Origin: Acidobacteriota bacterium | Lineage (GTDB): Bacteria; Acidobacteriota; Thermoanaerobaculia; Gp7-AA8 | DNA: 64,000 nt | Direction: 5' to 3' | NCBI GenBank assembly: GCA_034667465.1 | Contig: JAXDJV010000010.1 | Coordinates: 6,874 to 70,873, forward strand | Part shown: positions 11,980-35,497 of the stretch, piece by piece | Layout of the letters: each line of letters starts with the position of its first letter | Numbering within the stretch: position 1 is the first letter of the stretch | Position numbers and translations under genes: made by a program | The notes under the pieces: model-generated | Told to the model about the DNA's origin: nothing | Seen by the model: only the letters and a program-made list of their open reading frames with translations | Databases searched by the model: none

Positions 11980-11982
11980 ACG

Positions 11983-15462: not shown

Positions 15463-16223
15463 CACTCTCGAACACGCAACTCGCGCAGATGGCGAGCGAC
15501 GGCTACCTGCTGCTGCCGGCGCTCTTCGACGCCGATGAGGTGGAGCTGCTCCGCGCCGCGGTGCCGGAAGTGATCGTGCGCCGCGGTCCGGAGGTGATCG
15601 GCGAGGACGATGATGCGTCGATGGTGCGGATGATCTTCGCCGCACACGCGTTCAACGAAACGTTCCGCCGCCTGACGCTGCATCCGCGGCTGATCTCGCG
15701 CGTCGAGCAGCTGTTCGGCGAGCCGGCGTATCTCTTTCAGTCGCGCTTCAACGTCAAGTCGAGCTTCCATTCCGCCGGCTGGGCGTGGCACCAGGACTTC
15801 AATCAATGGCATCGGCTCGACGGAATGCAGACGCCGAACGCGATGGCACTCGGCGTGTTCCTCGATGATGTGAATCCGTGCAACGGTCCGGTGATGGTGA
15901 TCCCCGGTTCGCACAAACGCGGTCACATCTTCAATCCCGACGGGATGGAGATTCCGGACGCCGACGTCGCCGCGGCCGCGAACGATCTCGGAATCATCCC
16001 GCTGATGGGACCTCCCGGTTCCGTCGCGCTCTTTCACTCGCTGATCATTCACGGCTCCGCGCCGAACGTCTCGCCGTGGCCGCGCCGCATCTTCTACATG
16101 AACCTCAGCCCGATCTCGAACCGCTCGCTGAGCCCGAAGCGCGAGTGGTTTCACTGCGACCCCGACGGTCCCGCGCTCGTGCCGCTGTCGGATGATTGTC
16201 TGCGTCAGAAGGTGCCGGCATGA
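15459..16223 (+). CDS. Phytanoyl-CoA dioxygenase family Fe(II)/2OG hydroxylase (EctD/proline hydroxylase-like)
   Basis: WAWHQDFNQWH..DGM, NGPVMVIPGSH, GSVALFHS..IHGSAPN..PRR. Confidence 0.9.
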   Translation: MTLSNTQLAQMASDGYLLLPALFDADEVELLRAAVPEVIVRRGPEVIGEDDDASMVRMIFAAHAFNETFRRLTLHPRLISRVEQLFGEPAYLFQSRFNVKSSFHSAGWAWHQDFNQWHRLDGMQTPNAMALGVFLDDVNPCNGPVMVIPGSHKRGHIFNPDGMEIPDADVAAAANDLGIIPLMGPPGSVALFHSLIIHGSAPNVSPWPRRIFYMNLSPISNRSLSPKREWFHCDPDGPALVPLSDDCLRQKVPA

Positions 16224-17539
16224 CGGCAATCGATTCGGCCGCACAACTCGCCATCGACGGCGGCACGCCGATCCGTTCCCGTCCGTTCGCACCTAACTGT
16301 CACATCGGCGGCCGCGAGCGCGAGCTGCTGCTCGACGCGCTCGAAAGCTGCAACTGGTCCGGCTTCCGCGCCGGCGCCGGCGCGAACGTTCTCGAGCTCT
16401 GCGCGACACCATCAGCAATCGCACGCGATCTCAACGACGTGCGTTACCTCGGTGGCCGCTACGTCCGGATGCTCGAGGCGATGTTCGCCGCGCGCGCGCA
16501 GACGACGTTCGCGATCGCCTGCAACTCCGCGACGTCCGGACTCGTGATGGCGTTCGGCGCGATCGGTCTCGAGCCGGGCGATGAAGTGCTCGTGCCGTGC
16601 ATGTCGTTTCACGCGACGGCGACGGCGATCCTCGCGTTTCAGGCGGTGCCGGTGTTCGTCGAGGTCGATCCGCATTCGTTCTGCATCGATCCGCGCGCCG
16701 CCGCGCTGAAGATCACGCCACGCACACGCGCGATCGTCGCCGTCCATCTCGGCGGCGTGCCGGCCGACATGCATGCGATCGTCGACCTTGCACGGCAGCA
16801 TCGCCTGAAGGTGATCGAGGACTGCGCGCAATCGCTCGGCGCACGCATCGACGGCGTCGAGGTCGGCGCCATCGGCGACGCCGGCGTCTACTCGCTGACC
16901 GAAACGAAGAGCATTACCTGTGGCGAAGGAGGCGTCGTCGTCACGAACGACGTGCGCATCGCCACGAAGTGCCGCTTGATCCGCAATCATGGAGAAGGGG
17001 CGGCCGGCGAATCGTGGAGCGATGACGAGCTGGCGAACGTCGTCGGGATGAACTTCCGATTGACGGAACTGCAGGCGGCGGTAGCAGTCGCGCAGTTCGA
17101 GCAACTCGACGATCGCAACGAAGTGCGCAACGAAAACGCGAACGCGCTCATCGAAGGTCTGTCGCAGTTCCCGCAATTCATCCCGCAGCAGCTTGCCGCG
17201 AATGCGGAGCGCGCCTGCTACATGCCGAAGTTTCGTTACGTCGCCGGTCCGTCGATGCCGTCGCGCGATGAGCTCGTGCGCATCCTCGCCGCGGAAGGGA
17301 TCCCGCTCGTCGCCGGCTATCCGCGCCTGCTGCACGAGAATCCGATCTTCTCGCGGCGGATCGCGTACGGCACCGGCGGCGCGCCGTTCCGCGATTCGGT
17401 CGCGCGCTACGGAACGGGAACGTGTCCGCGATCGGAAGCGCTGAATCGCGAGCTGCTCTGGTTTCCGTTCGTCAATCCGCCGAATACGATCGATGACATG
17501 CGCGACGTCGTGCGCGCAATCGAGAAGGTGTTCTCATGA
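16220..17539 (+). CDS. DegT/DnrJ/EryC1/StrS PLP-dependent aminotransferase
   Basis: NSATSGL, GDEV, AVHLGG, IEDCAQS, SLTETKSITCGEGG (PLP Lys), NFRLTELQAAV. Confidence 0.93.
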   Translation: MTAIDSAAQLAIDGGTPIRSRPFAPNCHIGGRERELLLDALESCNWSGFRAGAGANVLELCATPSAIARDLNDVRYLGGRYVRMLEAMFAARAQTTFAIACNSATSGLVMAFGAIGLEPGDEVLVPCMSFHATATAILAFQAVPVFVEVDPHSFCIDPRAAALKITPRTRAIVAVHLGGVPADMHAIVDLARQHRLKVIEDCAQSLGARIDGVEVGAIGDAGVYSLTETKSITCGEGGVVVTNDVRIATKCRLIRNHGEGAAGESWSDDELANVVGMNFRLTELQAAVAVAQFEQLDDRNEVRNENANALIEGLSQFPQFIPQQLAANAERACYMPKFRYVAGPSMPSRDELVRILAAEGIPLVAGYPRLLHENPIFSRRIAYGTGGAPFRDSVARYGTGTCPRSEALNRELLWFPFVNPPNTIDDMRDVVRAIEKVFS

Positions 17540-20155: not shown

Positions 20156-21454
20156 ATGGTGGAATCGGTTCAGTACGACTACGACTTTGCGGTTGCCGGC
20201 GGCGGCCCTGCCGGCTGTTCGGCGGCGATCTCGCTCGCGCAGCGCGGTCACTCCGTTGTCCTCTTCGAGCGCGAAACGGGTCCGCGCTTTCATATCGGCG
20301 AGTCCTTGCTGTCGACGGCCAACGATGCGTTCGATGCGCTCGGCGTCACCGAGCGGATGGATGCGGCCTGTTTCCCCGACAAGTGGGGAGCGCGGCTCTT
20401 TACGCATGATGGCCGCAGCGGACGCGGAGTCGACTTCGCCGACGTCCGCGAGGTGACGCGGCCGAAGACGTTTCAGGTTTGCCGCGAGGAGTTCGACCGC
20501 ATTCTGATGGAGCGGGCGCGCGAGCTCGGCGTCGAAATTCGTGAAGGGCATCGCGTCAATGGCTGCTCGTTTTCGGCTGAAGACGCCGTCCTCGATTTCG
20601 CATCCGTCGCCGAGGGCGGGCCGACCGGTCGCGTGCGTGTTCGTGCGCTCGTCGATGCGACGGGGCGCAATGGTCTGATCGCGCGGAAATTCAATCTGCG
20701 CACTGACGAACCGCTCCTTGCGAACATCGCGGTTTTCTCGCACTTCAAGAACGTTCCGCGGCTGCCGGATGATCGTCCGGATGACATTCGACTCGTCGCG
20801 CGCGAGGACGCCGGCTGGTTCTGGATCATTCCGATCTCGAAAGAGCTGACCAGCGTCGGTGTCGTGCTGCCGAAAAAACTCTACGCGCAGATGGCCGGCG
20901 GTTCTTCCGAGGATTTGCTGCAACGTGCGATCGGCGATACGCCGGTCGTTGCGGAGCTGATGCGCGATGCGCAGCGCGAGTGGCCGGTGCGCGTCGAGAA
21001 AGACTTCTCATACAGCGCTTCCACCTATGCGGGCGATCGCTGGATCCTCGCCGGCGACGCCGGTTCGTTTCTCGATCCGGTTTTTTCCACCGGCGTCTCG
21101 ATCGCGATGGAGTCGGGAATCGAGGCGGCGGCGGAGCTCGACCGCGCGCTGAAGCAGAACGATTTTTCGGCCCGTTCGTTTGCGGCGTTCTCGCGTCGCC
21201 AGCGCAAGCGCTTCAGGACGTTCCGCCGTTTCGTCGTCGGTTTTTACACGCCGCAATTCCGCGATCTCTTTTTCGATCCGAACCCGCCGATGCTTTTGTT
21301 TCGCGCGGTCATCACGGTCCTCGCCGGCAAGTGGGATTCGAGTTTGCGCACCCGCTTTTTCAACAACGTCTTCTTCGGACTGGTGGCGTTTCAGAAGCGC
21401 TTCAGGATGTTCAGTCCCGCATTCCGCCGCGATCGCGACGCAGGATATCCGTGA
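20156..21454 (+). CDS. Flavin-dependent halogenase-like oxidoreductase
   Basis: GGGPAG FAD motif, RFHIGESL, FPDKWG, GWFWIIP (WxWxIP), GDAGSFLDPVFSTG. Confidence 0.8.
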   Translation: MVESVQYDYDFAVAGGGPAGCSAAISLAQRGHSVVLFERETGPRFHIGESLLSTANDAFDALGVTERMDAACFPDKWGARLFTHDGRSGRGVDFADVREVTRPKTFQVCREEFDRILMERARELGVEIREGHRVNGCSFSAEDAVLDFASVAEGGPTGRVRVRALVDATGRNGLIARKFNLRTDEPLLANIAVFSHFKNVPRLPDDRPDDIRLVAREDAGWFWIIPISKELTSVGVVLPKKLYAQMAGGSSEDLLQRAIGDTPVVAELMRDAQREWPVRVEKDFSYSASTYAGDRWILAGDAGSFLDPVFSTGVSIAMESGIEAAAELDRALKQNDFSARSFAAFSRRQRKRFRTFRRFVVGFYTPQFRDLFFDPNPPMLLFRAVITVLAGKWDSSLRTRFFNNVFFGLVAFQKRFRMFSPAFRRDRDAGYP

Positions 21455-21955: not shown

Positions 21956-24900
21956 TCAGTGCGCGGGAGGAGTGGTGTTCGGTTTCTTCCCCTGCTCGAT
22001 CGGTTTCGGGGCGCTGAGTTTCGTCGGCGCCTGTTCATCCTTCGGCTTGTCTTCACCGATGTGCTGACGCGGCGACGAGACGAAGCGGCCGCTCTCACCC
22101 TGTACTTCAGGCTGCGGTGTTTGCGGCTGGCCGAGCAGAATGACGTTCTCCACCGGATGCGTGGCGATGCCGCCATTCGGAGAGATCGCGGTCACGACGC
22201 GCGGATCGTTCGTCGTGATGCCGCTGCTCGTGGTGCTGAAACTCCAGAGACCGTTTTCGCCGACCTTCACATCGGCCGACAGCTGCGTGCCGTTGCCCGG
22301 CGTGCCGGGCTGGCTGAGGAACAGCGACACGGTCGCGGCGCGGTTCCCGTTTTTCGGATTTGCGGCGCGATCGACGTAGACGGTCGTCGAGCCGAAGACG
22401 GTCAGCTCGCCGTTGCTGAACTGCGAGCCGGCGATGCGCACCGCATCCGATCCCGATTTCTCCGTGACGCGGAGGACGCCCCAGAGCCCGAGCTCGAGGA
22501 AGTTCGCCGGAGTCGTGCGCCAGAGATAGTCGCCTGCGACCGGCCAGACGTTCTTCGACATGTCGCCGCCACCGGCGCTCGGCAGATCGATCTCGTACGC
22601 CATGTTGGTGCCGAAGTTGTCGCGCGCGCCGAGGTTTTGAGAGTCGACGTTGTTGCCAATGGAACCGGAGGCGTTTGCGGCGGTGCCGGTGTACGGCAGT
22701 TCCTGCCACACGTGTCCGTGCAGCGCGAGCACCTGCTGATCGCCGGCGCCGCCGGGATGGAGCAGACGCATGCGCGCCGGCGTTCCCGCAGCCGCGGCGA
22801 AGATCGGCGTCTGCGGTTCGGCGAGCACGAGTCCGTCCGAATAGCCCTGCCAGATGTCGGTGCGACCGACGAACGTCGACGTCGCGGCGTTGAAGCGATA
22901 CGCCATCGGCTCGGTGCGGAAGTTGACGGCGACGCGCGTCGAGCCCGCGGGTGAAGTCACGGTCGTGCCGGCGGGCGGCGTCCAGGTTGCACCCGGCCAC
23001 GTCACGCTGGCGAGATCGTCCTGCGTCAGCAGCACGAATTCGCGGTAGCGCAGTCCGACCGGATTCGTGCAATCGCCGCCGTTGTAAATCGTCGCGGAAC
23101 CGTACTGCAGCATGTTGTTGCGCGGGTTGAAGATGTCGGGACAGGCGATGGTGTTCGCCGGCTCGACGACAAGACCGCCGACGAGACCGTGCAGATCCTG
23201 CTCGAGCGGATCCGACGGCGTCAGATTCACGCCGCCCAGCTCGATCGGTCTTCCCGTCACCGCGCCACCCGACGAAATCTTCGTCTGTCCGGCGTACCAG
23301 TAGAGCGTCTTCTCGCCGCCGATCGGCACTGTCTGATCGGGATTGAATCCGACGTTCATGCCTGTGCTGCGCATCGCATCGAACGACAGCAGCGCCGGCG
23401 TCAGGCTGGCCTGCTTCGACGGCAGCAGCTTAATGGTCGGCGCGAACGCCGCGGTCGATCCGCCCTCCGTGAACTGCGGCGCGGTTGGATCGAAACCGTT
23501 CGCGATCGTCAGCGCGATGCAGTCGCCGGCGTTCGCGCGCATGATCAGCGGCTCGGTCGTCGACGTGTTGTCAGACAGCGTGAACATCATCGGCTGATTG
23601 TTCGTGATGGTGTTGTTGAAGCGGCCGCCTGCGCCTGCGCCGCGGCTGTTCATGTTGAACGGAGACGGCGTCGACGAAACGACGCGGAACCGTTTGACCT
23701 GCGACGGCGAGACCGGCGGGCAGCTGTAGCCCCATTCGGCGGTGGCCGGCGGCAGCGCAGTGACGTTACGGTTCGTGCTGAGCTCCACGAGATTCGCGAG
23801 CTTCGATTTGTACGCGCGGAAGATGCCCCACGTACCGTCGACGATGCCGTGTTTCTGGTTCGACGCATCCGGCTGGTAGAGGTAGTCGGTCCAGTTGTGC
23901 GCGGCGTCGGCCGACGGGCTGGCGCGCGGCGTCTCGAAGATGAACTCGAAGTGTTCCGAGATGCCCATCGACTGCGAGCTGCGGAATCCCGACTGATCCC
24001 ACGACGGCTCGAAGAGCCACTTCATGCCGCCGACCGTGAATGCGTGCGGCAGCATGTGCGCGCCGGCGACGATGCGAACCTGCACGCGATCGCCTTCATA
24101 CGCGCGGAGCAGCGGCGTGTACGGATCGCCCGGCTGCATCCCTTCGGTGAGCGGTTTGCGCGGCCAGATGAAGCCGCCCGGTTTGGTCGGATTGATTTCG
24201 CCGCCGAGCGGCGGCTGGCTGTTCATCTGCGGATCGTTGCGGGTGATGTTCGATGCGAAGACGTACGAAAGATCGGTCGTCTTCGGATCGCTGGCGGAGG
24301 TGCCGGGCGAGACGCGCCAGGGGAGCGGCTCGTTGCGATAGTTGAATGACGTCGTTCCCTGCGTCGGACCGGCGCTGATGATCTGCGGCTGCGGCATCGG
24401 CCCGAGGTCGGTCTGCTGCGGAACCGGATCGATGACGTTCGACGGATCGGACCAGCCGACGTTCGGGTCGCTGCTCGCTTTCTTTTTGCTGGTGGCGCGA
24501 TACGCGAACTGGAAGTCCTGCATCGCCAGCGCGAATTCGCGATAGGTATTCAGCTCCTGTCCGGGAGTTTCGATGACCGCGTTCCAGGTGGTCGGGCCAC
24601 CGTCGTCGCGCGAGTGAAGCGGATCGCCGCTCTCGCCCTTCGACCACGTGCTGCCGGTCGGTTCGACGAGCAGCGCTGCGTAGAGGCCGGTCTGCTGATG
24701 CGTCGACGGACCGAAGTGATCGTGCGTGAAGACGGTGCGAAGCGTGCGCGTGCCGTTGATGTTCTCGTGCGGAATCGGATCGGCGAACCAGCGCTGTATG
24801 GTCGTCTGCGCTCCGGCCCATTCTTCTTTGCAATGTTTCGTGCGCGCCGGATCGGTCGATTCGCAGATTTCCTTCGGCGGCGCGGCCGGGTTGCGCTTCA

Positions 24901-27721
24901 CGCGTTTGGTGTTGTTGGTGTTGCACTTCTTCAGATCGTTCGCGGTCAGCGCGAGGCCGCCGCACTGGTTGATGCCTTTGAGCAGATCCTGCACTTCCTC
25001 GTAGCTGAGCGTGCCGTCCTCGTAGTTGTAGCCGTTCGCGGCGCCGTCCGATGACGTCACGTCGAACTTCACGAGGTGGATGTGTTGGCCGATGATGTCG
25101 GTCGGCGTGCGTACTTCGTAGTCATCGAGCAGGAAGTAGTTCGGCACGAGGTTGGTGTGCCAGAACTCGACGCCCTGTCCGGCGTTCGCGCGGATGAAGA
25201 ACGGCTGCGGCGGCACGTCGGAGTACGCGGTCGGCAGCACGTCGCGCCACAGCGTGATCAGTCGCGCCTGCGGGTAATGCCACCCCTTCTTGTTGAAGAC
25301 GAAGTCGGTCTGGATCACCGCCGCTTTGTATTTGATCCAGTCCGTGTCCCTGATCGGCCGGCACTGCAGATCGCCGGCCGGCGGATTGTTCTCGTCGTAC
25401 GGTATGAGTCCCGGATTCGCGTACGGTGCGCCGGAGATTCGCGTCAGGCCGTTCGTCCGATACGGACTCGCGCTCCCTTCCGGCGTGAACGACGGATGGA
25501 AACATTTCTCGTGGTAGGTCATCGCCACTTTTTCTTCCGCGGTGCCGTCTTCCGGCAGCTCGTAGGCGTTGACCTTGTCCATGTCCTTGCTGAAGTTCAG
25601 CGTGGTGTGCTGCTCGTTGTAGATGTTCGCGTTGATGATGAGATGCCGCGGCAGGCCGCCGTCGTACGGCTTGTTGGCGGCGTCGGTCGCGAAGTCGAGC
25701 GGCGGATGCGGCGCGCGAACGCCGGCCACGCCGGGGATGAAGAACGGGAAGCCGGGGTTGATCCCTTTGTTCATGTCGCCCGCGTCGACTTCCGCTTTGA
25801 AGCCGACCGGCTTCACGCCCGGGGTGCCGTTCGGATCGTTCACCGGGACGAGCTTGACGGCGGCCGGCATCGGCGGCATCGCAATCGTCGGCATCGGAAT
25901 CAGCGCCGGAATCGGAGTGCCGTCGGCGATCTCGCCGTCGGGCAGAGCGCGCGTTTTGTAGCGCGCCAGTTTGTCGAATCCGGTGCTCGCATACGGCGAG
26001 CCGACTTCGTACACGTCATGCGAACGCCAGAGCGCCCACATGCCGGCCGCGAAGTGCGGATAGAAGTGGCAGTGGAAGATCGAATCGCCGACGACCTTGT
26101 TGCGATTGCCGCCGCCGTTGAATGCGATCTCCAGCGTGTACGCGCTGCCGGGATTGATCAGCTGACTGTCGAGATACGCCGAGCCGTCGCTGTTCGGCGA
26201 ATGCACCCACTGATGCGCGTGCAGATGATGAACGTGCGAAACGCCGGTGCCCGAATGGAGGATTCGGAACTTCACCCGGTCGTTGATGTAGCTGTGATAG
26301 ACGTTCGACGGGTCGTCATCGAAGAGCGCCTTGTGGGCTTTGCGCACCGGAATGACGCCGGTCGGCGCATTGCCGGCCACGCCTTCCTTGCACGGTACCG
26401 ACGGAACGCCGCTGATCGTGACGGCGGTCTGGTTTTCGAAGCCGTCGCCGCATGGCACGTTCGCCGGCACATCGACGAGCATGGCCGGATCGCCGCTCGA
26501 CCACGCGCTCAGGAAGAATTCTTCGAAGCGGCAGTCGGGGCAGCTGCCCATCGGTCCGATGCCGAAACGATTCGCGAGAATCTCCGCACCGATGCCTCCG
26601 GTGCCGTAGTTGATCGCGAACGCGTCGCCTGCCGCGCTCAGCGTGTTCGCGATGCCGGCCGGCGCGCCCATGATCGGGAAAGCCTGCACGGCGTCGTTCA
26701 GCTCGTGATACTCGATCGTGAATTCGCGATACGGATCGAGACGATTCGGTTCGATGTTGATCTTCTGCAGGTTCGGATCGCTCGTGCCGGCCGGGAAGCG
26801 GCCGTGATGCGGTCCGGTGATGACCGCGGTCAGATCGGTATGAACGATCTCGTTGCGATTGTCGAGCATTGCCAGGACCGGCGTGCCGGCCATCGGATTT
26901 CCCGGAGGATAGACGGCGTCGTATTTGATGAACGGCTGGCCGATCGGACTGAAGCCGCCGCCCTGCGTCGTGTCGATCGCGAACTCGAGATCGGAGTGCG
27001 TGACCTGGCTGCGATACCACTCGGCGCCGCGCGGCTGCACGTTGACCGCGCCGAAGAGTCCGGCCGTCTGTTGCGCGCCGTCGTTCGGCTGGTTCTGGCC
27101 GCCGAACGCTGCGCCTTCGCTGTTGAGCAGGAAGGTTCCTTCTTCGGTCGCGCGCAGCGTGTACGTGATCGATTTCGTATCGTCGGGCGGAATCGTCGAG
27201 TTGGCGTTCGCGCCGACGAACGAGCCGTCGTCGAGAATCGTGTTCACCATCTGCATGCCGGCGACATGGACCGATGCGTAGCGCGTTGCCGGCTGCGTCG
27301 CCACCGGCGCATCCGCGAGCAGGTTGCGGAAGGTGATGGCGAGACAGTCGCCGACGTTCGCGCGCAGCACGATCGGGCGCGGACGTTTGCCGTAGCGCAG
27401 CATCACGTTGCCGTGCGTCAGCGTCGTTCCGGTTCCGCTCTTCGGCACGACGTCGCGTTCGAGCGCGAACACCATTCCTTCGGGCATCGCAGCGCCGAGG
27501 CGGTTCACGAGATACGGCTGATCGAGTGCGACGACTTTCGCGGTGATCGTCCGTTCGCATCCGGTGTTGCCGGCCATCGGAGCCGGTTCCGGCGCCGGCA
27601 TCGGCGCGGGCTGCGGAGCCGGTGCGGGCTGTGGTGCGGGCGGCGCGCCGTACGACGTGCACGAGGCGAACAGGAGTCCGAGGATCAGGGCGAACAGACC
27701 ACGGACACGAAGTGCTGGCAT
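21956..27721 (-). CDS. Very large multicopper oxidase lipoprotein, MnxG/McoA-like (putative Mn(II) oxidase)
   Basis: Copper-ligand motifs HVHHLHAHQW, HCHFYPHFAAGM, HTNL, HIHLVKFD, HDHFGPSTHQQ, HGHVW; lipobox LFASC. Start placed at ATG 27721 (GGAGG upstream). Confidence 0.82.
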   Translation of the reverse strand: MPALRVRGLFALILGLLFASCTSYGAPPAPQPAPAPQPAPMPAPEPAPMAGNTGCERTITAKVVALDQPYLVNRLGAAMPEGMVFALERDVVPKSGTGTTLTHGNVMLRYGKRPRPIVLRANVGDCLAITFRNLLADAPVATQPATRYASVHVAGMQMVNTILDDGSFVGANANSTIPPDDTKSITYTLRATEEGTFLLNSEGAAFGGQNQPNDGAQQTAGLFGAVNVQPRGAEWYRSQVTHSDLEFAIDTTQGGGFSPIGQPFIKYDAVYPPGNPMAGTPVLAMLDNRNEIVHTDLTAVITGPHHGRFPAGTSDPNLQKINIEPNRLDPYREFTIEYHELNDAVQAFPIMGAPAGIANTLSAAGDAFAINYGTGGIGAEILANRFGIGPMGSCPDCRFEEFFLSAWSSGDPAMLVDVPANVPCGDGFENQTAVTISGVPSVPCKEGVAGNAPTGVIPVRKAHKALFDDDPSNVYHSYINDRVKFRILHSGTGVSHVHHLHAHQWVHSPNSDGSAYLDSQLINPGSAYTLEIAFNGGGNRNKVVGDSIFHCHFYPHFAAGMWALWRSHDVYEVGSPYASTGFDKLARYKTRALPDGEIADGTPIPALIPMPTIAMPPMPAAVKLVPVNDPNGTPGVKPVGFKAEVDAGDMNKGINPGFPFFIPGVAGVRAPHPPLDFATDAANKPYDGGLPRHLIINANIYNEQHTTLNFSKDMDKVNAYELPEDGTAEEKVAMTYHEKCFHPSFTPEGSASPYRTNGLTRISGAPYANPGLIPYDENNPPAGDLQCRPIRDTDWIKYKAAVIQTDFVFNKKGWHYPQARLITLWRDVLPTAYSDVPPQPFFIRANAGQGVEFWHTNLVPNYFLLDDYEVRTPTDIIGQHIHLVKFDVTSSDGAANGYNYEDGTLSYEEVQDLLKGINQCGGLALTANDLKKCNTNNTKRVKRNPAAPPKEICESTDPARTKHCKEEWAGAQTTIQRWFADPIPHENINGTRTLRTVFTHDHFGPSTHQQTGLYAALLVEPTGSTWSKGESGDPLHSRDDGGPTTWNAVIETPGQELNTYREFALAMQDFQFAYRATSKKKASSDPNVGWSDPSNVIDPVPQQTDLGPMPQPQIISAGPTQGTTSFNYRNEPLPWRVSPGTSASDPKTTDLSYVFASNITRNDPQMNSQPPLGGEINPTKPGGFIWPRKPLTEGMQPGDPYTPLLRAYEGDRVQVRIVAGAHMLPHAFTVGGMKWLFEPSWDQSGFRSSQSMGISEHFEFIFETPRASPSADAAHNWTDYLYQPDASNQKHGIVDGTWGIFRAYKSKLANLVELSTNRNVTALPPATAEWGYSCPPVSPSQVKRFRVVSSTPSPFNMNSRGAGAGGRFNNTITNNQPMMFTLSDNTSTTEPLIMRANAGDCIALTIANGFDPTAPQFTEGGSTAAFAPTIKLLPSKQASLTPALLSFDAMRSTGMNVGFNPDQTVPIGGEKTLYWYAGQTKISSGGAVTGRPIELGGVNLTPSDPLEQDLHGLVGGLVVEPANTIACPDIFNPRNNMLQYGSATIYNGGDCTNPVGLRYREFVLLTQDDLASVTWPGATWTPPAGTTVTSPAGSTRVAVNFRTEPMAYRFNAATSTFVGRTDIWQGYSDGLVLAEPQTPIFAAAAGTPARMRLLHPGGAGDQQVLALHGHVWQELPYTGTAANASGSIGNNVDSQNLGARDNFGTNMAYEIDLPSAGGGDMSKNVWPVAGDYLWRTTPANFLELGLWGVLRVTEKSGSDAVRIAGSQFSNGELTVFGSTTVYVDRAANPKNGNRAATVSLFLSQPGTPGNGTQLSADVKVGENGLWSFSTTSSGITTNDPRVVTAISPNGGIATHPVENVILLGQPQTPQPEVQGESGRFVSSPRQHIGEDKPKDEQAPTKLSAPKPIEQGKKPNTTPPAH

Positions 27722-27744
27722 GCGGGATTCCTCCATCTGACTAA

Positions 27745-27805
27745 AAGACGCGTTTCCGTCCCCTTTCGTGAAGGGATTTCACGAGGGGCGAGGGGAGCGC
27801 GTCTT
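27745..27805. promoter_or_regulatory. Nested inverted repeat in the divergent intergenic region (candidate operator or hairpin)
   Basis: AAGACGCG (27745-27752)/CGCGTCTT (27798-27805) enclosing TCGTGAA-N5-TTCACGA (27766-27784). Confidence 0.4.
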
Positions 27806-27817
27806 CCCGTACAGAGC

Positions 27818-28597
27818 ATGCTGAAGGTCGTCATCAACTGCGGCCGTTGTGAGGCGTTCATCGGCGACTGCCTTGCCTCCGTCCGGCGGCAGAGTTACGG
27901 CGCGTGGCAGGCGCTGGTGACGGTCGATCGCCGCGGCGACAAAACGTACGAGCGCGCACTTGAAGCGAGCGGCGGCGACGAGCGTTTCGTGATCGTGCAA
28001 AACGCGCGGCGCCGTTATCCGATGCGCAACATCGTCAGCGCGATCGAACGGAGCGGCGCCGAGGCGGAAGACATCATCGTCATCCTCGATGGCGACGACT
28101 GGCTGATCGATGACGACGCGTTCGCGCGCATCGCCGCCGCCTACGAGGAGACCGGCTGCTGGATGACGTACGGCAGCTGGATCAGCAATCAGCCCGGACA
28201 TCCGGGGCGCTGGCCGGCGTATCGGGATGACGTCGCCGACTTTCGCGGCGAGCGCTGGCTCGGCACCGCCATTCGTACGTGGAAGAAGTGGCTGTGGGAT
28301 CTCATCGATCCGAATGATTTTCGCGACGAGCGCGGACGCTGGCTGCGGATCACCGAGGATCTCGCCTGCATGTTTCCGATGTTCGAGATGGCGACGACGC
28401 GGCGCGCGCATCACATCGCCGAGCCGCTCATGCTCTACAACCGGCTGAGCCATCACGATCCGAAGCGGCGCATGGCCGAGGAGGGGATTCGCAACGCGGC
28501 GTGGCTGCGGACGCGGCCTCGTTACGCGCCGCTGACATTCACAAAAGAGGCTGTCGAATCGTCTTTGCAGACGACAGAAGCGCGTTTCCCGGCATAA
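27818..28597 (+). CDS. Glycosyltransferase family 2
   Basis: C-terminal part of track ORF 25076..28597 from ATG 27818; FIGDCLASVRRQSY, VILDGDDWL, ED, LMLY. Confidence 0.85.
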   Translation: MLKVVINCGRCEAFIGDCLASVRRQSYGAWQALVTVDRRGDKTYERALEASGGDERFVIVQNARRRYPMRNIVSAIERSGAEAEDIIVILDGDDWLIDDDAFARIAAAYEETGCWMTYGSWISNQPGHPGRWPAYRDDVADFRGERWLGTAIRTWKKWLWDLIDPNDFRDERGRWLRITEDLACMFPMFEMATTRRAHHIAEPLMLYNRLSHHDPKRRMAEEGIRNAAWLRTRPRYAPLTFTKEAVESSLQTTEARFPA

Positions 28598-28608
28598 GGA
28601 GGTAAGTC

Positions 28609-29040
28609 ATGGGTGGCAAGACCAATGGTGGCGGTGGTGGTGGCGGCGATGTCGTCGTAATCACCGTCAGCCGCGCATGCGCCAAAGAGTTCCTGACCGC
28701 GATCACGATCGCCCTCGGCTCGAAACCGATCAAGAAGATCACCAAGGGCAAGAAGGGTAAAGGCGGAAAGGGCGGCGGCAAGTCGACCGGCGGCGGCGGA
28801 AAAACGACGACGGGCGGCAAGACGACGACCGGCGGCGGGAAGACGACGACGGGCGGCGGAAAAACCACGACCGGTGGCGGAAAGACCACGACCGGTGGCG
28901 GCACGACGACGGGTGGCGGCAAGACGACGACGGGTGGCGGCAAGCCTCCGAGCGGCGGCAAGACGACCACGGGCGGCGGGACGACCACGACCGGCGGCGG
29001 CAAGTCGACCACCGGCGGCGCCAAAACCGCTAAGCGGTAA
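28609..29040 (+). CDS. Gly/Lys/Thr tandem-repeat peptide (putative modified precursor)
   Basis: AGGAGGT RBS at 28597-28603; short helical N-terminal segment, then about 10 GG(G)K/TTT-type repeats. Confidence 0.75.
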   Translation: MGGKTNGGGGGGGDVVVITVSRACAKEFLTAITIALGSKPIKKITKGKKGKGGKGGGKSTGGGGKTTTGGKTTTGGGKTTTGGGKTTTGGGKTTTGGGTTTGGGKTTTGGGKPPSGGKTTTGGGTTTTGGGKSTTGGAKTAKR

Positions 29041-29049
29041 CGCCTTCGC

Positions 29050-31119
29050 GTGTCGAGCATCTCTCCGGGGCGCGAGCGTTTGCTCCGCCCCACGATGCGA
29101 CCGGTTCGCCCGCCGCGGCCGAGCGCACGCGTGGAGCGACTCGTGCGCGAGCACGCTGGCGAGCATCGCGATCTCGCGCTGCTCGTCGACGTCGTGCTCG
29201 CGCAACGCGGCTATCTCCGTGCGCTCGCCCGGACGGCAGCGGAGCTTGCGCGCAACGGCGCGGAAGCGTGGCCTGTGCGCCGCGCGGCGACGCTCGTTCT
29301 CGAACATCTTCTCCTCCGAACGGACGACGTCTCCGAATGGCACTGGTGGATGCGCGAGCTGCACATCACCGGCATCGACGCGCGACAACTTCGCGCGCGA
29401 ATGTCGCGTCTCTCTCGCGTTCATGAATCGATCGCGACCGATTCAGGGCTCGGCGACTTCTTCCACATCGCCGCACGCGATTGCCGGCTGACGCTGGCGC
29501 GATACACCTTCGGCGCGAACGAAGTGATCGCCCAAATCGAGCGCGATCTCCGCCGCTCGCGCGGCCTGCGCAGCAAGCCCGATTACGGTCATCGTCTCGT
29601 CTACGAAGAGGCCGATCACATCCTCGACACGCTCGCGCCGATGGATCGCGCGATCATCGAGCACCTCGGCCGCGACGCAACCATTCGCTTCACCACCGAG
29701 CGGACGACCGACGACATCAACACGCTCATCGAGCATCCGGTCGGTACCGTCGTCGCGGTGATCAAGCCGCCCGGCAGCGACATCGAGATCGAGATCAAAC
29801 GCGCCGGCGTCCGCGAGCCGTTTCCGTTCGACGTCGTCTTCGCGCGCGGCGGCTACATCGTTCCGAACTCGCACTTCCTGCACGGCGGCTCGATGGAACA
29901 CCTCCTCGCATTCGAGACGTCGCAGGCGAGCGTGCTGTCGCGGCTCTATCGCAGCGTGCACGGCGTCGACGCACCGATGTCGCGCACGATTCACCTCGCC
30001 ACCGTCTACACGATTCCGACTCCGGATGGCGAAGTCGACGTGCTCGATTACTTCACCGATCCGAGCGTCTTCGGTGAGCGCTACAAAGCGATGCGCGCGC
30101 GGATGGATGACTGCGTCGCGGAGCTCGCGAATCAGCAGAAGAAGGATCGCGAGCCGCCGATCAACGAGCTGTCGCTCACGCTCGAGTTCCTCGGGCAGAT
30201 CAAGCCGGCGCAGGCGGTGCAGGTCGGAACAACATCGTTTCGTTTGGAACGGCTCGCCGCCTATCTCGCACCGAACGGCGACGCTCGTTTCTTCGGCCGC
30301 GATCGCGGCGTCGACTTCACACCGGCCGCCGCACGGCGTTTCGCTGATGAACTGCTCGACGAGATCCTCTGCGTCTACGAGCCGCCGCGCGTTGCGTATC
30401 GCAGCTACGCGAGCTACCTCGACGCCGCGTATGCGGTGCGCGCGAATCGCCGCCGCGCGAACGCGAACTACCTCGACGCGATGACGCAGTTCGGCCGCAT
30501 GTGGGGAACGCTCCTCGCCGCGCGCGGACACAGCGAAGGGGAATCGTTCGTGTCGCGCAACGCAGGACTGCGCAGCGTCTTCGCGGACGGCCAGTGGCAG
30601 CTGCGAATGGTCTTCATGGACCACGACTCGCTCTCGTTCGCGTCGCGCCATCGCAACGCCTACCATCCCGCCGGATCGGTGCGTTGCGCCGCGAAAGACG
30701 CGCGCTTCATCTTCGGCGGCTACTCGGGCAAGCGATACGTGCGCGGCTCCGTCGATTACCTGCGCGAGATCTATCGCGTGAATCGCGTCACCGAACGCCG
30801 CGGCATGACCGCGATGCGCGAAGCGATGAAAGCCGCGTACGACCTGACGCAATCGACGATGCGCAACGACGCCGCGACGAGCGAGCTGTTCCAGGTCGCG
30901 TTCATGGAAAAACTCGGCGACTGGGACCGGGTCGTCGGCCGCTACATGCGCACGCCGCGCAACGCCGCCGCGCGCAACGCGTGGAAGAGCGAGACGCGCG
31001 CGTTTCTCGCGGAGCGCGGCTACACCGAGCCGCTCGCGAACGAGTACGTCGAGACGATCATGAAGTACTCGCGCTTCCTGCGGCGGATCGCGTTCCTGTT
31101 CGCCCCCCCGTCATCCTGA
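29050..31119 (+). CDS. Hypothetical 689-aa protein with atypical protein-kinase-like motifs
   Basis: EIEIKRAG (beta3 Lys-like), GHSEGESFVSRN (catalytic loop-like), VFMDHD (metal-binding-like). The ORF is solid; the function is inferred. Confidence 0.6.
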   Translation: MSSISPGRERLLRPTMRPVRPPRPSARVERLVREHAGEHRDLALLVDVVLAQRGYLRALARTAAELARNGAEAWPVRRAATLVLEHLLLRTDDVSEWHWWMRELHITGIDARQLRARMSRLSRVHESIATDSGLGDFFHIAARDCRLTLARYTFGANEVIAQIERDLRRSRGLRSKPDYGHRLVYEEADHILDTLAPMDRAIIEHLGRDATIRFTTERTTDDINTLIEHPVGTVVAVIKPPGSDIEIEIKRAGVREPFPFDVVFARGGYIVPNSHFLHGGSMEHLLAFETSQASVLSRLYRSVHGVDAPMSRTIHLATVYTIPTPDGEVDVLDYFTDPSVFGERYKAMRARMDDCVAELANQQKKDREPPINELSLTLEFLGQIKPAQAVQVGTTSFRLERLAAYLAPNGDARFFGRDRGVDFTPAAARRFADELLDEILCVYEPPRVAYRSYASYLDAAYAVRANRRRANANYLDAMTQFGRMWGTLLAARGHSEGESFVSRNAGLRSVFADGQWQLRMVFMDHDSLSFASRHRNAYHPAGSVRCAAKDARFIFGGYSGKRYVRGSVDYLREIYRVNRVTERRGMTAMREAMKAAYDLTQSTMRNDAATSELFQVAFMEKLGDWDRVVGRYMRTPRNAAARNAWKSETRAFLAERGYTEPLANEYVETIMKYSRFLRRIAFLFAPPSS

Positions 31120-31202
31120 GCGAAGCGAAGGATCCGGGCGGTGGGACTCGCTGCGGTAGCGCGCCCCGCCCACGCAGATCCTTCGCTAACGCTCAGGATG
31201 AC
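31110..31202. repeat. 93-bp palindromic REP/MITE-like element
   Basis: GTCATCCTGAGCGAAGCGAAGGATC...GATCCTTCGCTAACGCTCAGGATGAC; second copy at 56295-56390. Confidence 0.88.
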
Positions 31203-31909
31203 GTTTGCGCGTACCGCCGCTTCAACTGCTCATACGTCGAGCGCGGATCGTGCTCCGCATCCTTGTCGCGGCCGCCGCGCCGCCACATCTCATTCCAGAG
31301 ATGCACGGCGACGCACGATTCCGGCAGCGGCGGCGGATCGGGTGCAAGCAGCTGATCCCACTCGCGATATCCGATCGGACAGAACACTTCCGGCGGACGG
31401 ACGAAACGCTGCAGCGCGAATTTCTCGACGGTCGCGCCGACCAGCGCCGGTCCGGTCTCGCCCCAGCGGATGTTGTCGCGATCCTTCGCCTCGCACGTCT
31501 CCCACGCGAAGCGCATCGCGTCGCTGCCGCGCGGCGCTTTGATGAAGCCGGCGTTGATCACCGCCCCTTTCGGCGAGTCCTCGCTCGAGAAAACGTACTC
31601 GTCATCAAAGGCCAGCGGCCGCAACGCGATCATGTCGGTGTCGGCCCAGCATCCGCCGCGCTCGAGCAGCAGCTTGTAGCGAAAGAAATTCGAAAAGCCC
31701 GAATACGAGCGGTGCTCGCGATAGAAAAAGATCGCCGACTCCGGCAGGATCTCGCGGCCGTCGCGCACCACGACACCGGACGGCACGCCGTCGACCTCAC
31801 CGTACGTGTAAAGATGAGTCTCGTGGCCGTTCGCGACGAACGACGTCAGCGCGAGGCGCTCCATCACCGACAGCCGCGGCCCGACCCACAGCATCTGAAT
31901 CAACTCCAT
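31193..31909 (-). CDS. GT32/Gb3-synthase-like DxD glycosyltransferase
   Basis: IQMLWVG, FSNFFRYKLL.ERGG.WADTD, WGETGP.L, F.PI, VHLWN. Confidence 0.85.
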   Translation of the reverse strand: MELIQMLWVGPRLSVMERLALTSFVANGHETHLYTYGEVDGVPSGVVVRDGREILPESAIFFYREHRSYSGFSNFFRYKLLLERGGCWADTDMIALRPLAFDDEYVFSSEDSPKGAVINAGFIKAPRGSDAMRFAWETCEAKDRDNIRWGETGPALVGATVEKFALQRFVRPPEVFCPIGYREWDQLLAPDPPPLPESCVAVHLWNEMWRRGGRDKDAEHDPRSTYEQLKRRYAQTSS

Positions 31910-33045
31910 CCGAGCAGTTCCTCCCACTGTCCCATGATGCGCGACGCGCTGAAGCGCTCGACGATCTCCGGCGCGCGCGCAGCGAGTGCACGACGCTCCT
32001 CATCGTTCGACATCAGCCGGTCGAGCGCCGACGCGAAGTCGCGAATGGCATGACTGCGAACGAGCAGTCCATCGATGCTGTCGCGCACGATGTCGCGAAC
32101 GCCGGCGCCGCAATCGACGACGACGGCGGGAAGTCCCGCTGCCATCGCCTCGCAAAGCGCATTCGGAAATCCTTCCGTCGCCGAAGTCATCGCGAAGATG
32201 TCGCCCGTTGCAAGCGCGCCATAGACGTCACGCGTCGCGCCGTGCAGCGTAATGAGCTCTCTCATCGAGAGCCGCTCGACATGCGCATCAAGCCGCGCGC
32301 GCTCCGGCCCGTCGCCCCAGATATCCAGCCGCCAATTCGGATGTTGCGGCGCAGCGCGCGCAAATGCTTCGATGAGCATCCCGATTCGCTTCGCCGGATC
32401 GAGCCGCGTCACGGTGACGACGCGAAAGAATCCCTCTCCCTCCGGGAGAGGGTGCCCGAAGGGCGGGTGAGGGGCGACAAACGAAGAGACAACGTGACAC
32501 GTCACCCCATACCGCCCAATGACGCTCGCCGCGTCAGCAGTCAACGTCACCACCGCATCCGCCCGCGGATAAAATCTCCCCCGCAAAACCTCCCAGTCGC
32601 CGATCGTGCAAAGCCGCGGATCGCAATGCTCCGACACGATCCGCCGCATCGGCAGTCCATCAGTCGCGAGCAACATCCGGATGTTCGTCGAATCCCCCAG
32701 TGAGATCACGGCAAGAGGATCAGTCTCGATGATCGTCCGCCGCAGCAGCGCGACGAGCACCACATCAGCGAGCAGCGTCTCCTCCGAATCGCGCGACAGA
32801 TTCATCGCTCGCGCCACGGCGCTCATCGTCTCCGCATCGAGCTCATGATCGCGCGGCGCGCGAAACCAGCCGACGTCGCGCACGGTGACGTTCGGATGGA
32901 GATCGAACGCGATCTCGCGTTCGCGCTGATAGATCGTCACGATCGACGGCCGCCACCCCTTCGCTGCCCAGTGGTTCGCCATGTTCGCGGCGACACGCTC
33001 CTGCCCGCCGGCGCGCAGACTGCCGACCACGATCGTCACCCTCAT
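31900..33045 (-). CDS. Glycosyltransferase family 4
   Basis: GGQERVA, SEH, RLDPAKR, WGDGPER, EGFPNALCEAMAAGLP; start at ATG 33045. Confidence 0.92.
   Translation of the reverse strand: MRVTIVVGSLRAGGQERVAANMANHWAAKGWRPSIVTIYQREREIAFDLHPNVTVRDVGWFRAPRDHELDAETMSAVARAMNLSRDSEETLLADVVLVALLRRTIIETDPLAVISLGDSTNIRMLLATDGLPMRRIVSEHCDPRLCTIGDWEVLRGRFYPRADAVVTLTADAASVIGRYGVTCHVVSSFVAPHPPFGHPLPEGEGFFRVVTVTRLDPAKRIGMLIEAFARAAPQHPNWRLDIWGDGPERARLDAHVERLSMRELITLHGATRDVYGALATGDIFAMTSATEGFPNALCEAMAAGLPAVVVDCGAGVRDIVRDSIDGLLVRSHAIRDFASALDRLMSNDEERRALAARAPEIVERFSASRIMGQWEELLGWS
32432..32474. repeat. Palindromic repeat remnant inside the GT4 gene
   Basis: CCCTCTCCC-TCC-GGGAGAGGG hairpin plus GGGCGGGTGAGGGG; translates on the minus strand as PHPPFGHPLPEGEG. 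Confidence 0.55.
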
Positions 33046-33133
33046 CGTCTGCGAGGAAGACGCCGAGCCGCGCGCCGGCGTGAAAGAGGGTAGGGAAATG
33101 GTCACTTCCGACACTCCTTCAGTGGAGCCCCGA

Positions 33134-33715
33134 ATGAATCGTCCCTTCCTCCTGCTCTGCGCGCTCGCCATCGCTGCGCCCGCCATTTCCCAGGAACATC
33201 ATCATCATGTGATGGCTTCGCCGCCCGCCGCGTCGCGCACCTACACGATCCCCGACGTTCCGATGCGCACCGCGACCGGCGAGCAGGTCCACTTCTACAC
33301 CGACCTCGTGAAAGGCCGCGTCGTGGTGATGAACTTCATCTTCACGAGCTGCACGACGATCTGTCCGACGATGGGCGCCACGTTCGCGCGCGTCCAGCGC
33401 CTCCTCGGCACGCGCAACGTGGCGATGATCTCCGTCAGCATCGATCCGACTGTCGACACGCCGGAGCGGCTCGCCGTCTGGAGCAAACGTCTCGGCGCGA
33501 AGCCGGGATGGACGCTCGTCACCGGCGAGAAGACGGATGTCGATCGGCTGCTGAAATCGCTCGGACTCTTCAACGCCGATCCGGCCGCGCATTCCCCCGT
33601 CGTGCTCGTCGGCGATGAGAAGATGGGACGATGGGAACGGATCGACGGACTGGCCGCGCCCACATCGATCGTCGCCGTCATCGATCGGATGAGCGCCGAA
33701 GAGAAGGGAAAGTGA
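33134..33715 (+). CDS. SCO1/SenC family copper chaperone
   Basis: Signal peptide, HHHH, FIFTSCTTICP (CxxxC), SIDP..DTPE.L, W..VTG, conserved His. Confidence 0.92.
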   Translation: MNRPFLLLCALAIAAPAISQEHHHHVMASPPAASRTYTIPDVPMRTATGEQVHFYTDLVKGRVVVMNFIFTSCTTICPTMGATFARVQRLLGTRNVAMISVSIDPTVDTPERLAVWSKRLGAKPGWTLVTGEKTDVDRLLKSLGLFNADPAAHSPVVLVGDEKMGRWERIDGLAAPTSIVAVIDRMSAEEKGK

Positions 33716-34297: not shown

Positions 34298-35497
34298 ATG
34301 ACGCGCGCTCGCGCCGTCACGCTCGCGCTGCTCTTCGCCGCTCACGCGCTCGCAGCCGCGACGCTCACGCCGCAACAGCTCCGCGGACGCGCGATCTATC
34401 GCACGGGAGAGACTCAGTCGGGCACGGCGATCGTCGCGCTCGTCGGCGCCGAAGATGTCGAAGTCGCCGCGACGTCTCTCCCATGCGCGAGTTGTCACGG
34501 TCGCGACGGAAAGGGACGCGCGGAAGGTGGCGTGACGCCGTCCAATCTGCAGTGGGACACGCTCGCGAAGCCGTACGAAGTGGCGACGGCCGGCGGACGA
34601 ACGCATCCGCCGTACACGCTGCCGCTGCTGAAGCGCGCCATCGCGATGGGAAGCGATCCGGCGAAGAATCGTCTGCTGCCGGCGATGCCGCGCTATCGGA
34701 TGTCGATGCGCGATCTCGACGATCTCGTCGCCTATCTCCCGCTGCTCGGCAGCGATCACGATCCCGGCATCAGCGATGACGCGGTCGCCGTCGGCGTCAT
34801 CGTCCCGCCGAACGACGGCGGCGTGCGCGATGTGGTGAGCGCTTACTACGCGAGCATCAACGCGAAAGGCGGCATCTTCGGACGCCGCATCAAACCGCGA
34901 TTCACGTTCGATGAGGAGCCGTTCGCGATCGCGCCGTCATTCGGAACGGCCGACGCGCACATCCCGACGATCACCGCGCTCGGTACCGGCGGCTTCCAGC
35001 TCCTCGCCGGACTCGAAGAGCAATGCCACGCGCTCATCACATCGACCGAAGGAAAAGTGCGCGTCATCGGAAACGCACCGCGCGATCTCGGCGACCGCAT
35101 CACGACCGATCCCAACGCCCCAAACATCCTTGTGCTTGGTACGCCGTTGCCGCAGACGACGAGCACGCTGCTCGTTCCCGCCGCGTACTACGTCCCCCCG
35201 CCCCCGCCCGGCGCGAACGTGTTCGTCGCCGTGCCGTGGTCGAGCGCCGACGTCACCGCCGCCGGCCGCGCCGAGCTTCCCGCCCCAACCCCCGCCCGCG
35301 CCACGGCGCTCGCCGCCGCAAAGCTGTTCGTCCGCGCACTGGAACGAATCGGCCGCGACCTCGATCGCGAGTCACTCACGAAAATGCTCGAGTCGTTTTA
35401 CCAGGAGCCGACGGAGCTAACGCGGCCGGTGACCTGGACGCCGAAGAATCATGTGGGGAATGGGGAAGTGAGCGTGGTGCGGATGAGTGGGCGGTGA
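34298..35497 (+). CDS. c-type cytochrome fused to a periplasmic-binding-protein-like domain
   Basis: Signal peptide, RGRAIY, CASCHG heme motif, MPRY axial Met, then GGIFGRRI typical of Leu/Ile/Val-type binding domains. Confidence 0.82.
   Translation: MTRARAVTLALLFAAHALAAATLTPQQLRGRAIYRTGETQSGTAIVALVGAEDVEVAATSLPCASCHGRDGKGRAEGGVTPSNLQWDTLAKPYEVATAGGRTHPPYTLPLLKRAIAMGSDPAKNRLLPAMPRYRMSMRDLDDLVAYLPLLGSDHDPGISDDAVAVGVIVPPNDGGVRDVVSAYYASINAKGGIFGRRIKPRFTFDEEPFAIAPSFGTADAHIPTITALGTGGFQLLAGLEEQCHALITSTEGKVRVIGNAPRDLGDRITTDPNAPNILVLGTPLPQTTSTLLVPAAYYVPPPPPGANVFVAVPWSSADVTAAGRAELPAPTPARATALAAAKLFVRALERIGRDLDRESLTKMLESFYQEPTELTRPVTWTPKNHVGNGEVSVVRMSGR

Follow-up and report, generated by a model that had tools for sequence, protein, structure and literature searches.

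A putative kinase-fold enzyme family encoded with a lysine-rich protein in MnxG-type multicopper oxidase clusters of soil Acidobacteriota

Results

Organization of the locus

Our study reports on a protein family encoded within a 64,000-nucleotide stretch of an Acidobacteriota genome (GenBank assembly GCA_034667465.1, contig JAXDJV010000010.1, positions 6,874 to 70,873 of the forward strand), referred to below as the window. The gene under study lies on the plus strand at 29050..31119 and its product is a candidate enzyme with a predicted, highly diverged protein-kinase-like (PKL) fold. It is the third gene of an operon that opens with a GT2 glycosyltransferase (27818..28597, plus strand); after an 11-nt gap follows a gene for a small protein of 143 residues with an isoelectric point (pI) of about 11 (28609..29040, plus strand; strong Shine-Dalgarno sequence AAGGAGGT 7 nt before the ATG) and, 9-54 nt further on, the enzyme gene. 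Divergent from this operon, with 81 bp between the start codons, runs the gene of an MnxG-like giant multicopper oxidase of 1926 residues with a lipoprotein-type signal (LLFASC; 21956..27736, minus strand).

The open reading frame (ORF) at 29050-31119 is present on the plus strand as first reported for this DNA; its GTG start is doubtful. The mechanical ORF reads 689 residues from GTG 29050, and the true start is probably ATG 29095, giving 674 residues, since the 94%-identical homolog P0001 begins MRPVRP. Residue numbers in the enzyme are counted from GTG 29050 throughout. The ORF translation carries no signal peptide, and the enzyme family is basic, with a median pI of 9.2. Long overlapping ORFs at 25076-28597 (plus), 28522-29424 (minus) and 29443-30852 (minus), for example one of 1173 residues that joins antisense MnxG sequence to the GT2 gene, have no homolog support and are artefacts of the 65% G+C content.

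The enzyme belongs to a sequence-isolated family

The preliminary description treated the protein as an orphan, a view contradicted by our searches. One homology search returned 121 homologs at E<=1e-3, with 33-94% identity, nearly all of 640-730 residues and none of them named, and an exhaustive profile search extended the family to about 490 clusters at 50% identity, with relatives in 199 species-level genomes. The carriers are mostly soil Acidobacteriota (Thermoanaerobaculia, Pyrinomonadaceae/Blastocatellia and Vicinamibacterales), joined by a few Gammaproteobacteria, including a USCγ metagenome-assembled genome (MAG), and by Leptolyngbya cf. ectocarpi. The window itself is 94% identical to the soil Acidobacteria MAG L006, and its sequence also occurs in soil metagenomes.

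No family match was found for the enzyme in Pfam, NCBIfam or the PDB sequences. When 40 family members were compared with Pfam at E<=10, nothing was returned except the GT2 domain of a fusion protein; the SelO model PF02696 (hmmscan) and the CotH domain gave no match among these 40 members at this threshold, NCBIfam likewise gave none for SelO, and neither a Pkinase nor an APH match was found for the enzyme or the 40 members. Searches of the PDB sequences with phmmer and profile hmmsearch produced weak matches only, to designed repeat proteins and a complex I subunit. Profile alignment with hhalign gave a probability of 0.3% against E. coli SelO alone and of 1.7% against an alignment of 11 SelO sequences (plasmid-borne selO genes), the latter with a spurious pairing of MDHD and MNTDN. 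The literature that we searched describes neither the family nor its MnxG-associated module. What is new here is the family, its motif set (KPPGS...K-R-x-G, GESFVxRN and DHD), its Lys-rich disordered partner and its attachment to MnxG-type clusters; the fold superfamily is already known, and within it the enzyme is best treated as a family of its own.

A divergent family domain was also seen in P0232, a giant multi-domain protein of 5427 residues from an AT-rich organism, at residues ~4228-4933. Its motifs are variant: GESFVxRN is replaced by GYGFYDTN and MDHD by HDLD, and an IKGSG stretch comes nearer to SelO's KGAG. Several other kinase-like, ATP-grasp-like and methyltransferase-like stretches were seen by eye on its flanks.

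Three motifs carry near-invariant residues

Three sequence strings had been proposed to occur in the order of the β3 Lys, the catalytic loop and the metal-binding loop of kinases, and they are indeed found in this order on the plus strand, where they form the most conserved parts of the family, well beyond what chance would give. Motif 1, IKPPGSDIEIEIKRAG (29761-29808), comprises a strand, a KPPGS loop and a second strand ending in K250, followed by R251 and G253; the KPPGS loop occupies the place of the Gly-rich loop, ahead of the Lys strand. Motif 2, GHSEGESFVSRN (30526-30561), is a loop directly after a long αE-like helix (464-490), with G497, E498, R503 and N504 as its near-invariant residues. 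Motif 3, VFMDHD (30610-30627), stands at the end of a β-hairpin (505-522). In the structural model described below, K250 is the candidate β3 Lys, N504 the candidate metal-binding Asn of the catalytic loop and D524 the candidate metal-binding Asp of DFG type. E289 (codon 29914..29916, plus strand), within helix 283-304, is a candidate αC Glu that may pair with K250, and D550 (codon 30697..30699, plus strand), in helix 540-555, is possibly equivalent to the αF Asp of protein kinases.

Conservation was counted over 201 family members of at least 550 residues. K250, E246, G253, R398 and D524 are each conserved in 201/201, N504 in 200/200, R503 in 199/200 and E498 in 198/200; H525 is kept in 198/201, D526 in 198/201 with Glu in the other three, and D550 and R467 in 200/201 each. 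The E289 position holds Glu in 187 and Asp in 12 of the 201. The proposed Lys, Glu/Asn and Asp residues are thus near-invariant among homologs, which speaks for the preliminary description. Its placing of a Glu at the catalytic Asp position is doubtful. The catalytic Asp of kinases sits five residues ahead of the Asn (HxDxxxxN), and E498 is six residues ahead of N504. Taking N504 as the counterpart of this Asn would thus put S499, a Ser in 189/201 members, at the catalytic Asp position. With S499 at this position and a KPPGS loop, the family departs from canonical protein kinases of the HRD type. SelO likewise has a non-acidic residue there.

Structure prediction points to a diverged kinase-like fold

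The AlphaFold2 model of the full-length protein, built from a 110-sequence alignment, has a predicted local distance difference test (pLDDT) score of 95.7 and a predicted template modelling (pTM) score of 0.93. When it was compared with 350,542 PDB chains in Foldseek, the top six matches were all SelO/YdiU, with probabilities of 0.99-1.00, E-values of 3e-3 to 3e-2 and template modelling (TM) scores of 0.32-0.36 on the target, and the next E-value was 0.4. Kinase folds made up 18 of the top 50, including ERK1/2, TYK2-JH2, ROP5, PEAK3, WaaP, PsiK, PI3Kγ and SMG1. A core-only model (residues 160-580; pLDDT 95.3) again ranked SelO/YdiU first, with probabilities of 0.90 and 0.85, E-values of 0.03-0.08 and TM-scores of 0.25-0.29; here 19 of the top 50 were kinase folds, among them Rio2, PsiK, WaaP, STK33, ROP5, ULK2, MK2, Wee1 and IRE1. 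Trimming to the core raised the E-values and did not sharpen the fold match, which suggests that the C-terminal helices add to the resemblance to SelO. In the viral library BFVD the weak matches were enriched in Ser/Thr kinases. The folds of IucA/IucC and of ATP-grasp enzymes were rejected as candidates, being absent among the Foldseek matches of both models.

DSSP assignment of the model places a strand at 236-238, the KPPGS loop, a strand at 247-250 ending in K250, helix 283-304 with E289 and strands at 312-330, followed by a helical insert, helix 464-490, the loop G497-N504, the β-hairpin 505-522, the D524-H525-D526 segment and helix 540-555 with D550. In the model this order of secondary structure elements is the canonical kinase order, and the features that define membership of the PKL fold are predicted to be in place: a bilobal arrangement of elements, a β3 Lys with an αC Glu, and an Asn together with a DFG-type Asp. 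The model supports the assignment of the three motifs to the β3 Lys, the catalytic loop and the metal-binding loop. The enzyme carries about 140 additional helical residues at the N-terminus and about 130 inserted helical residues, the latter between the N-lobe strands and the αE-like helix, and these additions account for the low TM-scores. Root-mean-square deviations for the Foldseek matches are 10-15 Å. Overall, the model gives moderate support for a kinase fold. The structure prediction and Foldseek comparison proposed for this protein thus returned a PKL-like result; the idea of an atypical PKL fold is favoured by the SelO/YdiU matches and the kinase order of elements, and it is weakened by E-values above 1e-3, TM-scores of at most 0.36 and the lack of a profile link.

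A lysine-rich partner protein is encoded directly upstream

The small protein encoded ahead of the enzyme consists of a conserved, non-repetitive core with a predicted β-strand and helix, DVVVITVSRACAKEFLTAITIALG (28648-28719, plus strand), and a Lys/Gly/Thr tail of about 12 GGGKTTT-type repeats (tandem array 28771-29024, plus strand). An equivalent small gene lies directly upstream across related loci, nearly always on the same strand. With a hidden Markov model (HMM) of the core, after one iteration, a small ORF bearing the core motif was found within 1.5 kb upstream in 65 of the 73 loci with enough upstream sequence, and seven of the eight remaining loci have an ORF there that is Lys-rich by composition, with a diverged core. 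Before the iteration, the HMM gave 58 matches in a six-frame translation of about 1.4 Mb, all of them adjoining a family gene. The core follows the pattern D-x-V-x-[IV]-x-[LIV]-x-[RK]-x-x-A-x-x-L-x-x-A-L-x-x-A-L-G, predicted as a β-strand plus an amphipathic helix, which may resemble the strand and first helix of the ribbon-helix-helix DNA-binding motif. In six Thermoanaerobaculia loci (L013, L014 and L016-L019) the small protein is longer, at 170-250 residues, and has two tandem core-like β-strand/helix segments before a Lys/Gly/Ser/Thr tail.

The tails are hypervariable (for example KKKKDKKDKGKDKGK, KPKPKP, GGKPPGG, GKPSGKPS and GGGKTTT), and the only trait common to them is their composition, which across loci comes to 25% Lys, 27% Gly and 12% Pro with a pI of about 10-11. 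Three classes of protein were considered for them and set aside: graspetide-like Lys-Asp cross-linking was rejected because the tail in the window lacks Asp and Glu, collagen-like tails were rejected on their repeat periods of 4 or 7 residues instead of 3, and a classical secreted matrix protein is unlikely, as a signal peptide is lacking in both the small protein and the enzyme.

In four independent soil metatranscriptomes, with coverage judged from assembled contigs instead of reads, RNA contigs over a 3.6-kb region were almost confined to the small gene, whose non-repetitive core they also covered. This indicates that the gene is real and expressed far above the enzyme gene. A repeat-number variant of 50 nt is seen in one RNA contig, and in the 94%-identical genome L006 the repeats are patterned differently. 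Abundant RNA from the small gene and scarce RNA from the enzyme gene fit an abundant substrate served by a scarce enzyme. Together with a docking-like core and hypervariable tails, this recalls the enzyme-substrate pattern of the precursors of ribosomally synthesized and post-translationally modified peptides (RiPPs) and of CotG/CotB with CotH. The suggestion that the upstream repeat peptide is the substrate of the enzyme is strongly supported by the conserved synteny.

The module accompanies MnxG-like oxidases

A giant multicopper oxidase gene is adjacent to the family gene in 67 of 80 loci, and in 45 of the 46 loci flanked by 8 kb or more on each side; even at the distant Leptolyngbya locus a multicopper oxidase adjoins the family gene. 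The oxidase of the window scores 1071 bits against the NCBIfam MnxG model NF041487 and aligns with the Bacillus MnxG structure PDB 9bxa at 8e-78. We regard it as an MnxG relative and not an ortholog because its score lies below the equivalog cut-off of 3100. The window also carries a SCO1/SenC copper chaperone (32981..33715, plus strand), a protein with cytochrome c and Peripla_BP_6 domains (34298..35497, plus strand) and a YNCE/YVTN β-propeller gene that accompanies the oxidase. The P. putida GB-1 mnxG operon includes SCO1/SenC, a cytochrome c plus binding-domain protein and YNCE propeller genes (PMC11409713), so that the window shares with it both the MnxG-like oxidase and these accessory genes. 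By its MnxG-like oxidase, SCO1/SenC protein and cytochrome c accessory, the cluster in the window is recognisable as MnxG-type, with putative Mn oxidation. Three components of the window are missing from the GB-1 operon, namely the kinase-fold gene, the Lys-rich small protein and the glycosyltransferases.

Glycosyltransferases are frequent but not universal neighbours

Besides the GT2 gene at the head of the operon, the window contains a DXD-motif glycosyltransferase (Gly_transf_sug / Gb3_synth; 31193..31927, minus strand), convergent with the enzyme gene, and a GT4 glycosyltransferase (31900..33186, minus strand; a mechanical ORF whose true start is probably further inside). Among the 80 loci (L006-L085), the DXD type occurs in 35, mostly directly downstream of the enzyme gene, GT4 in 26 and GT2 in 14, so glycosyltransferases are frequent neighbours of the family gene without being universal. 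In P0084 (932 residues) and P0143 (930 residues) a GT2 domain, homologous to the separate GT2 gene at 27818-28597, is fused to the N-terminus of the enzyme. The Ser/Thr content of small proteins is higher next to a GT2 gene (median 0.21 vs 0.07; Mann-Whitney p=0.0013, confounded by phylogeny), and small proteins with no GT2 nearby are Lys/Asp/Pro-rich with few Ser/Thr. The comparison, with this confounding, hints at O-glycosylation of the tails in one clade.

Discussion

From these data we propose, with a probability of roughly one half, that the enzyme is catalytically active, an atypical transferase of kinase fold whose substrate is the co-encoded small protein, and that it is accessory to MnxG-type clusters. 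It would form the catalytic half of a conserved two-gene module: a cytoplasmic protein of protein-kinase-like but strongly diverged fold, with SelO/YdiU as the closest relative of solved structure. A nucleotide-metal complex may be bound through K250, paired with E289, through N504 and through the D524-H525-D526 loop, and part of the nucleotide, either phosphate or, as in SelO, AMP or UMP, would be moved onto the small protein encoded upstream. This protein would dock through its β-strand/helix core and offer its disordered Lys/Gly-rich tails as the substrate. The module as a whole would serve as an accessory of clusters built around an MnxG-type multicopper oxidase, a putative Mn(II) oxidase, and in some lineages it may act together with glycosyltransferases.

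The transferred group may be phosphate or a nucleoside monophosphate. Transfer of the latter is suggested by the closest structures, which are AMP/UMP transferases, and by the missing HRD Asp, a trait that the modelled active site shares with SelO; the absence of the SelO signature motifs and of profile similarity argues against it at the level of sequence. Only Lys and Gly are universal in the tails, which makes a Lys-directed (phosphoramidate) reaction conceivable. The acceptor of the NiRAN domain is a primary amine, the N-terminus of nsp9, and on this analogy transfer to lysine may be entertained as speculation. NiRAN, a kinase-like domain of nidovirus polymerases, is related to SelO and has an alternative transferase activity (PMC10211241); it offers a chemical precedent only, for a SelO-like enzyme that modifies the amino groups of Lys-rich tails.

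Several observations weigh against our proposal. Searches of Pfam, NCBIfam and the PDB sequences and the hhalign comparisons all failed to connect the enzyme, by sequence or by profile, with SelO or a kinase family; no Foldseek match reached E<=1e-3, and TM-scores stayed within 0.25-0.36. The canonical catalytic (HRD) Asp and the Gly-rich GxGxxG loop are absent from the family. On the substrate side, Ser and Thr make up about 7% of the small protein where no GT2 gene is adjacent, and with Lys and Gly as the universal tail residues a classical Ser/Thr kinase target is not obvious; the tails and the enzyme are both basic, so that their charges are not complementary. A functional tie to the oxidase is not easily explained, given that the oxidase is an exported lipoprotein and that the enzyme and small protein lack signal peptides. 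Finally, the P. putida mnxG operon works without such a module (PMC11409713).

The presence of glycosyltransferases raises a different reading, which we consider unlikely, namely that the enzyme is a glycan or small-molecule kinase like WaaP, KdkA, POMK or FAM20B and phosphorylates, in place of the polypeptide, a sugar built by these glycosyltransferases, possibly on Ser/Thr of the small protein. The WaaP, POMK and FAM20B kinases are likewise kinase-fold enzymes that work in one pathway with glycosyltransferases, and WaaP is among our weak fold matches; the fusions in P0084 and P0143, the operon order in the window (GT2, small protein, enzyme), the frequency of DXD and GT4 genes and the higher Ser/Thr content of GT2-adjacent small proteins all fit. 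Against this, GT2 is adjacent in 14 of the 80 loci only, and no glycosyltransferase was found near many loci of the Pyrinomonadaceae type, while enzyme and small protein are always present. The Ser/Thr correlation is confounded by phylogeny, and no sequence relation links the family to WaaP, POMK or FAM20B.

A second doubtful alternative holds that the resemblance to kinases is coincidental and that the protein is an enzyme of another kind, such as a ligase or hydrolase, whose fold is new or has other relatives. The Foldseek statistics given above, the 10-15 Å deviations, the 1.7% probability against SelO and the extra ~130 helical residues ahead of the αE-like helix all speak for it. It is less easily reconciled with six independent SelO/YdiU chains at the top of 350,542, first again with the trimmed core, with unrelated kinases as 18-19 of the top 50 in both searches, or with conserved residues at canonical positions in the order of secondary structure.

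If the fold is kinase-like, the protein might still be a non-catalytic pseudokinase that, with the polycationic small protein, aids the production or regulation of the MnxG-like oxidase as a scaffold, chaperone or sensor. The missing HRD Asp and Gly-rich loop would agree with this, as would the genomic association with the MnxG-like gene, the tightest that we found (45/46 loci), and the possible ribbon-helix-helix likeness of the small protein's core. We hold it to be improbable: the Lys, Asn, Asp and several Arg at canonical nucleotide- and metal-binding positions are near-invariant, which is the pattern of active SelO-like atypical enzymes, and near-absolute conservation of residues over 201 members favours catalysis over a dead scaffold; furthermore, the oxidase is exported and the enzyme lacks a signal peptide. 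It is similarly improbable that the small protein is an autonomous polycation binding nucleic acid, polyphosphate, membrane or mineral, with the enzyme acting on a metabolite or another protein, since the hypervariable tails with only charge and flexibility in common, the basic enzyme and the high expression of the small gene, which speak for it, are set against strict adjacency across phyla, mostly on one strand and with short gaps, and against a docking-like core with variable tails, an architecture typical of substrates that their enzymes recognise, RiPP precursors and CotG-like proteins among them.

Taking the proposed transferase as the preferred reading, its closest point of comparison is SelO/YdiU (PF02696), a family of AMPylating/UMPylating pseudokinases and the best PDB structural match of both the full and the core model. 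In both, helices at the C-terminus accompany a kinase-like core and the Lys leads into a turn of small residues and Gly (KRAG in the family, KGAG in E. coli SelO); both also keep the catalytic-loop Asn and an Asp of DxG/DxD type in the absence of the HRD Asp. They differ in GESFVxRN against HGVMNTDN, DHD against DYG and KRAG against KGxG, which leaves the Lys, the final Asn and the first Asp as the only counterparts within the SelO signature motifs. The family also has the ~140 additional N-terminal and ~130 inserted helical residues and another genomic context. SelO is defined by an inverted ATP orientation and by AMPylation (PMC10211241).

The gene arrangement invites comparison with CotH. 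Multicopper oxidases are also found on spores, with CotA in the coat and MnxG on Mn-oxidising spores, and the Bacillus spore coat in which CotH works likewise includes such an oxidase. CotH is an atypical kinase-fold enzyme encoded beside its substrate, the abundant, repeat-rich, basic, fast-evolving and low-complexity CotG/CotB (PMC7821199). Our family shares with it the placing of a kinase-fold gene next to the gene of a repeat-rich, basic and fast-evolving protein. The CotG/CotB repeats are Ser-rich and phosphorylated on Ser, whereas in the partner tails only Lys and Gly are universal, and CotH-type systems belong to Bacillus spores, whereas the hosts of our family are non-sporulating Acidobacteriota, Gammaproteobacteria and one cyanobacterium.

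Kinase-fold enzymes with non-kinase chemistry include SelO (AMPylation), SidJ (glutamylation) and NiRAN (RNAylation), and each such chemistry opened a new area of protein modification. The present family is sequence-isolated, with a confident model, a near-invariant atypical active site and a candidate substrate encoded adjacent to it; its chemistry is directly testable because this candidate lies beside a well-defined enzyme family. In soil Acidobacteriota, which are abundant and for the most part uncultured, it almost always adjoins MnxG-like giant multicopper oxidases, and the module points to an accessory function of these oxidase clusters that the Pseudomonas and Bacillus model systems lack. 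We know of no studies of Mn oxidation in the soil Acidobacteriota that carry it. At the far end of speculation, and improbable as a whole, a SelO-like enzyme would decorate a polycationic disordered protein with phosphate or nucleotide, possibly on Lys amino groups, and in some lineages with sugars, to give a silaffin-like zwitterionic matrix or regulator of MnxG-type manganese-oxide deposition or handling. If true, it would add to bacterial metal-oxide biomineralisation a protein-modification system not known before.

Further genes surround the oxidase in the window. A block of genes at 4909-13053 recurs within 10 kb of a family gene in about 10-12 other genomes (among them those at loci L097, L078, L048, L052, L054, L056, L057, L060, L073 and L004). 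It comprises a YNCE β-propeller, a DHquinase_I plus shikimate-dehydrogenase-like gene, an ORF with no Pfam match, an acyl-CoA dehydrogenase, a polytopic membrane protein fused to a low-molecular-weight phosphotyrosine-phosphatase domain and a luciferase-like monooxygenase. Removal of a phospho-modification, as by an eraser, is a possible role of the phosphatase domain. At the edge of this oxidase island a canonical Ser/Thr protein kinase with tetratricopeptide repeats (1426-4158, minus strand) stands beside a sigma factor of the extracytoplasmic function type (4170-4952, plus strand), both possible regulators. Between the recurring block and the oxidase gene, at 15459-17539 and 20156-21454, lie genes for a PhyH-family dioxygenase, a DegT/DnrJ sugar aminotransferase and a tryptophan-halogenase-like flavoprotein, which together with the three glycosyltransferases suggest that a modified sugar or glycoconjugate is made here.

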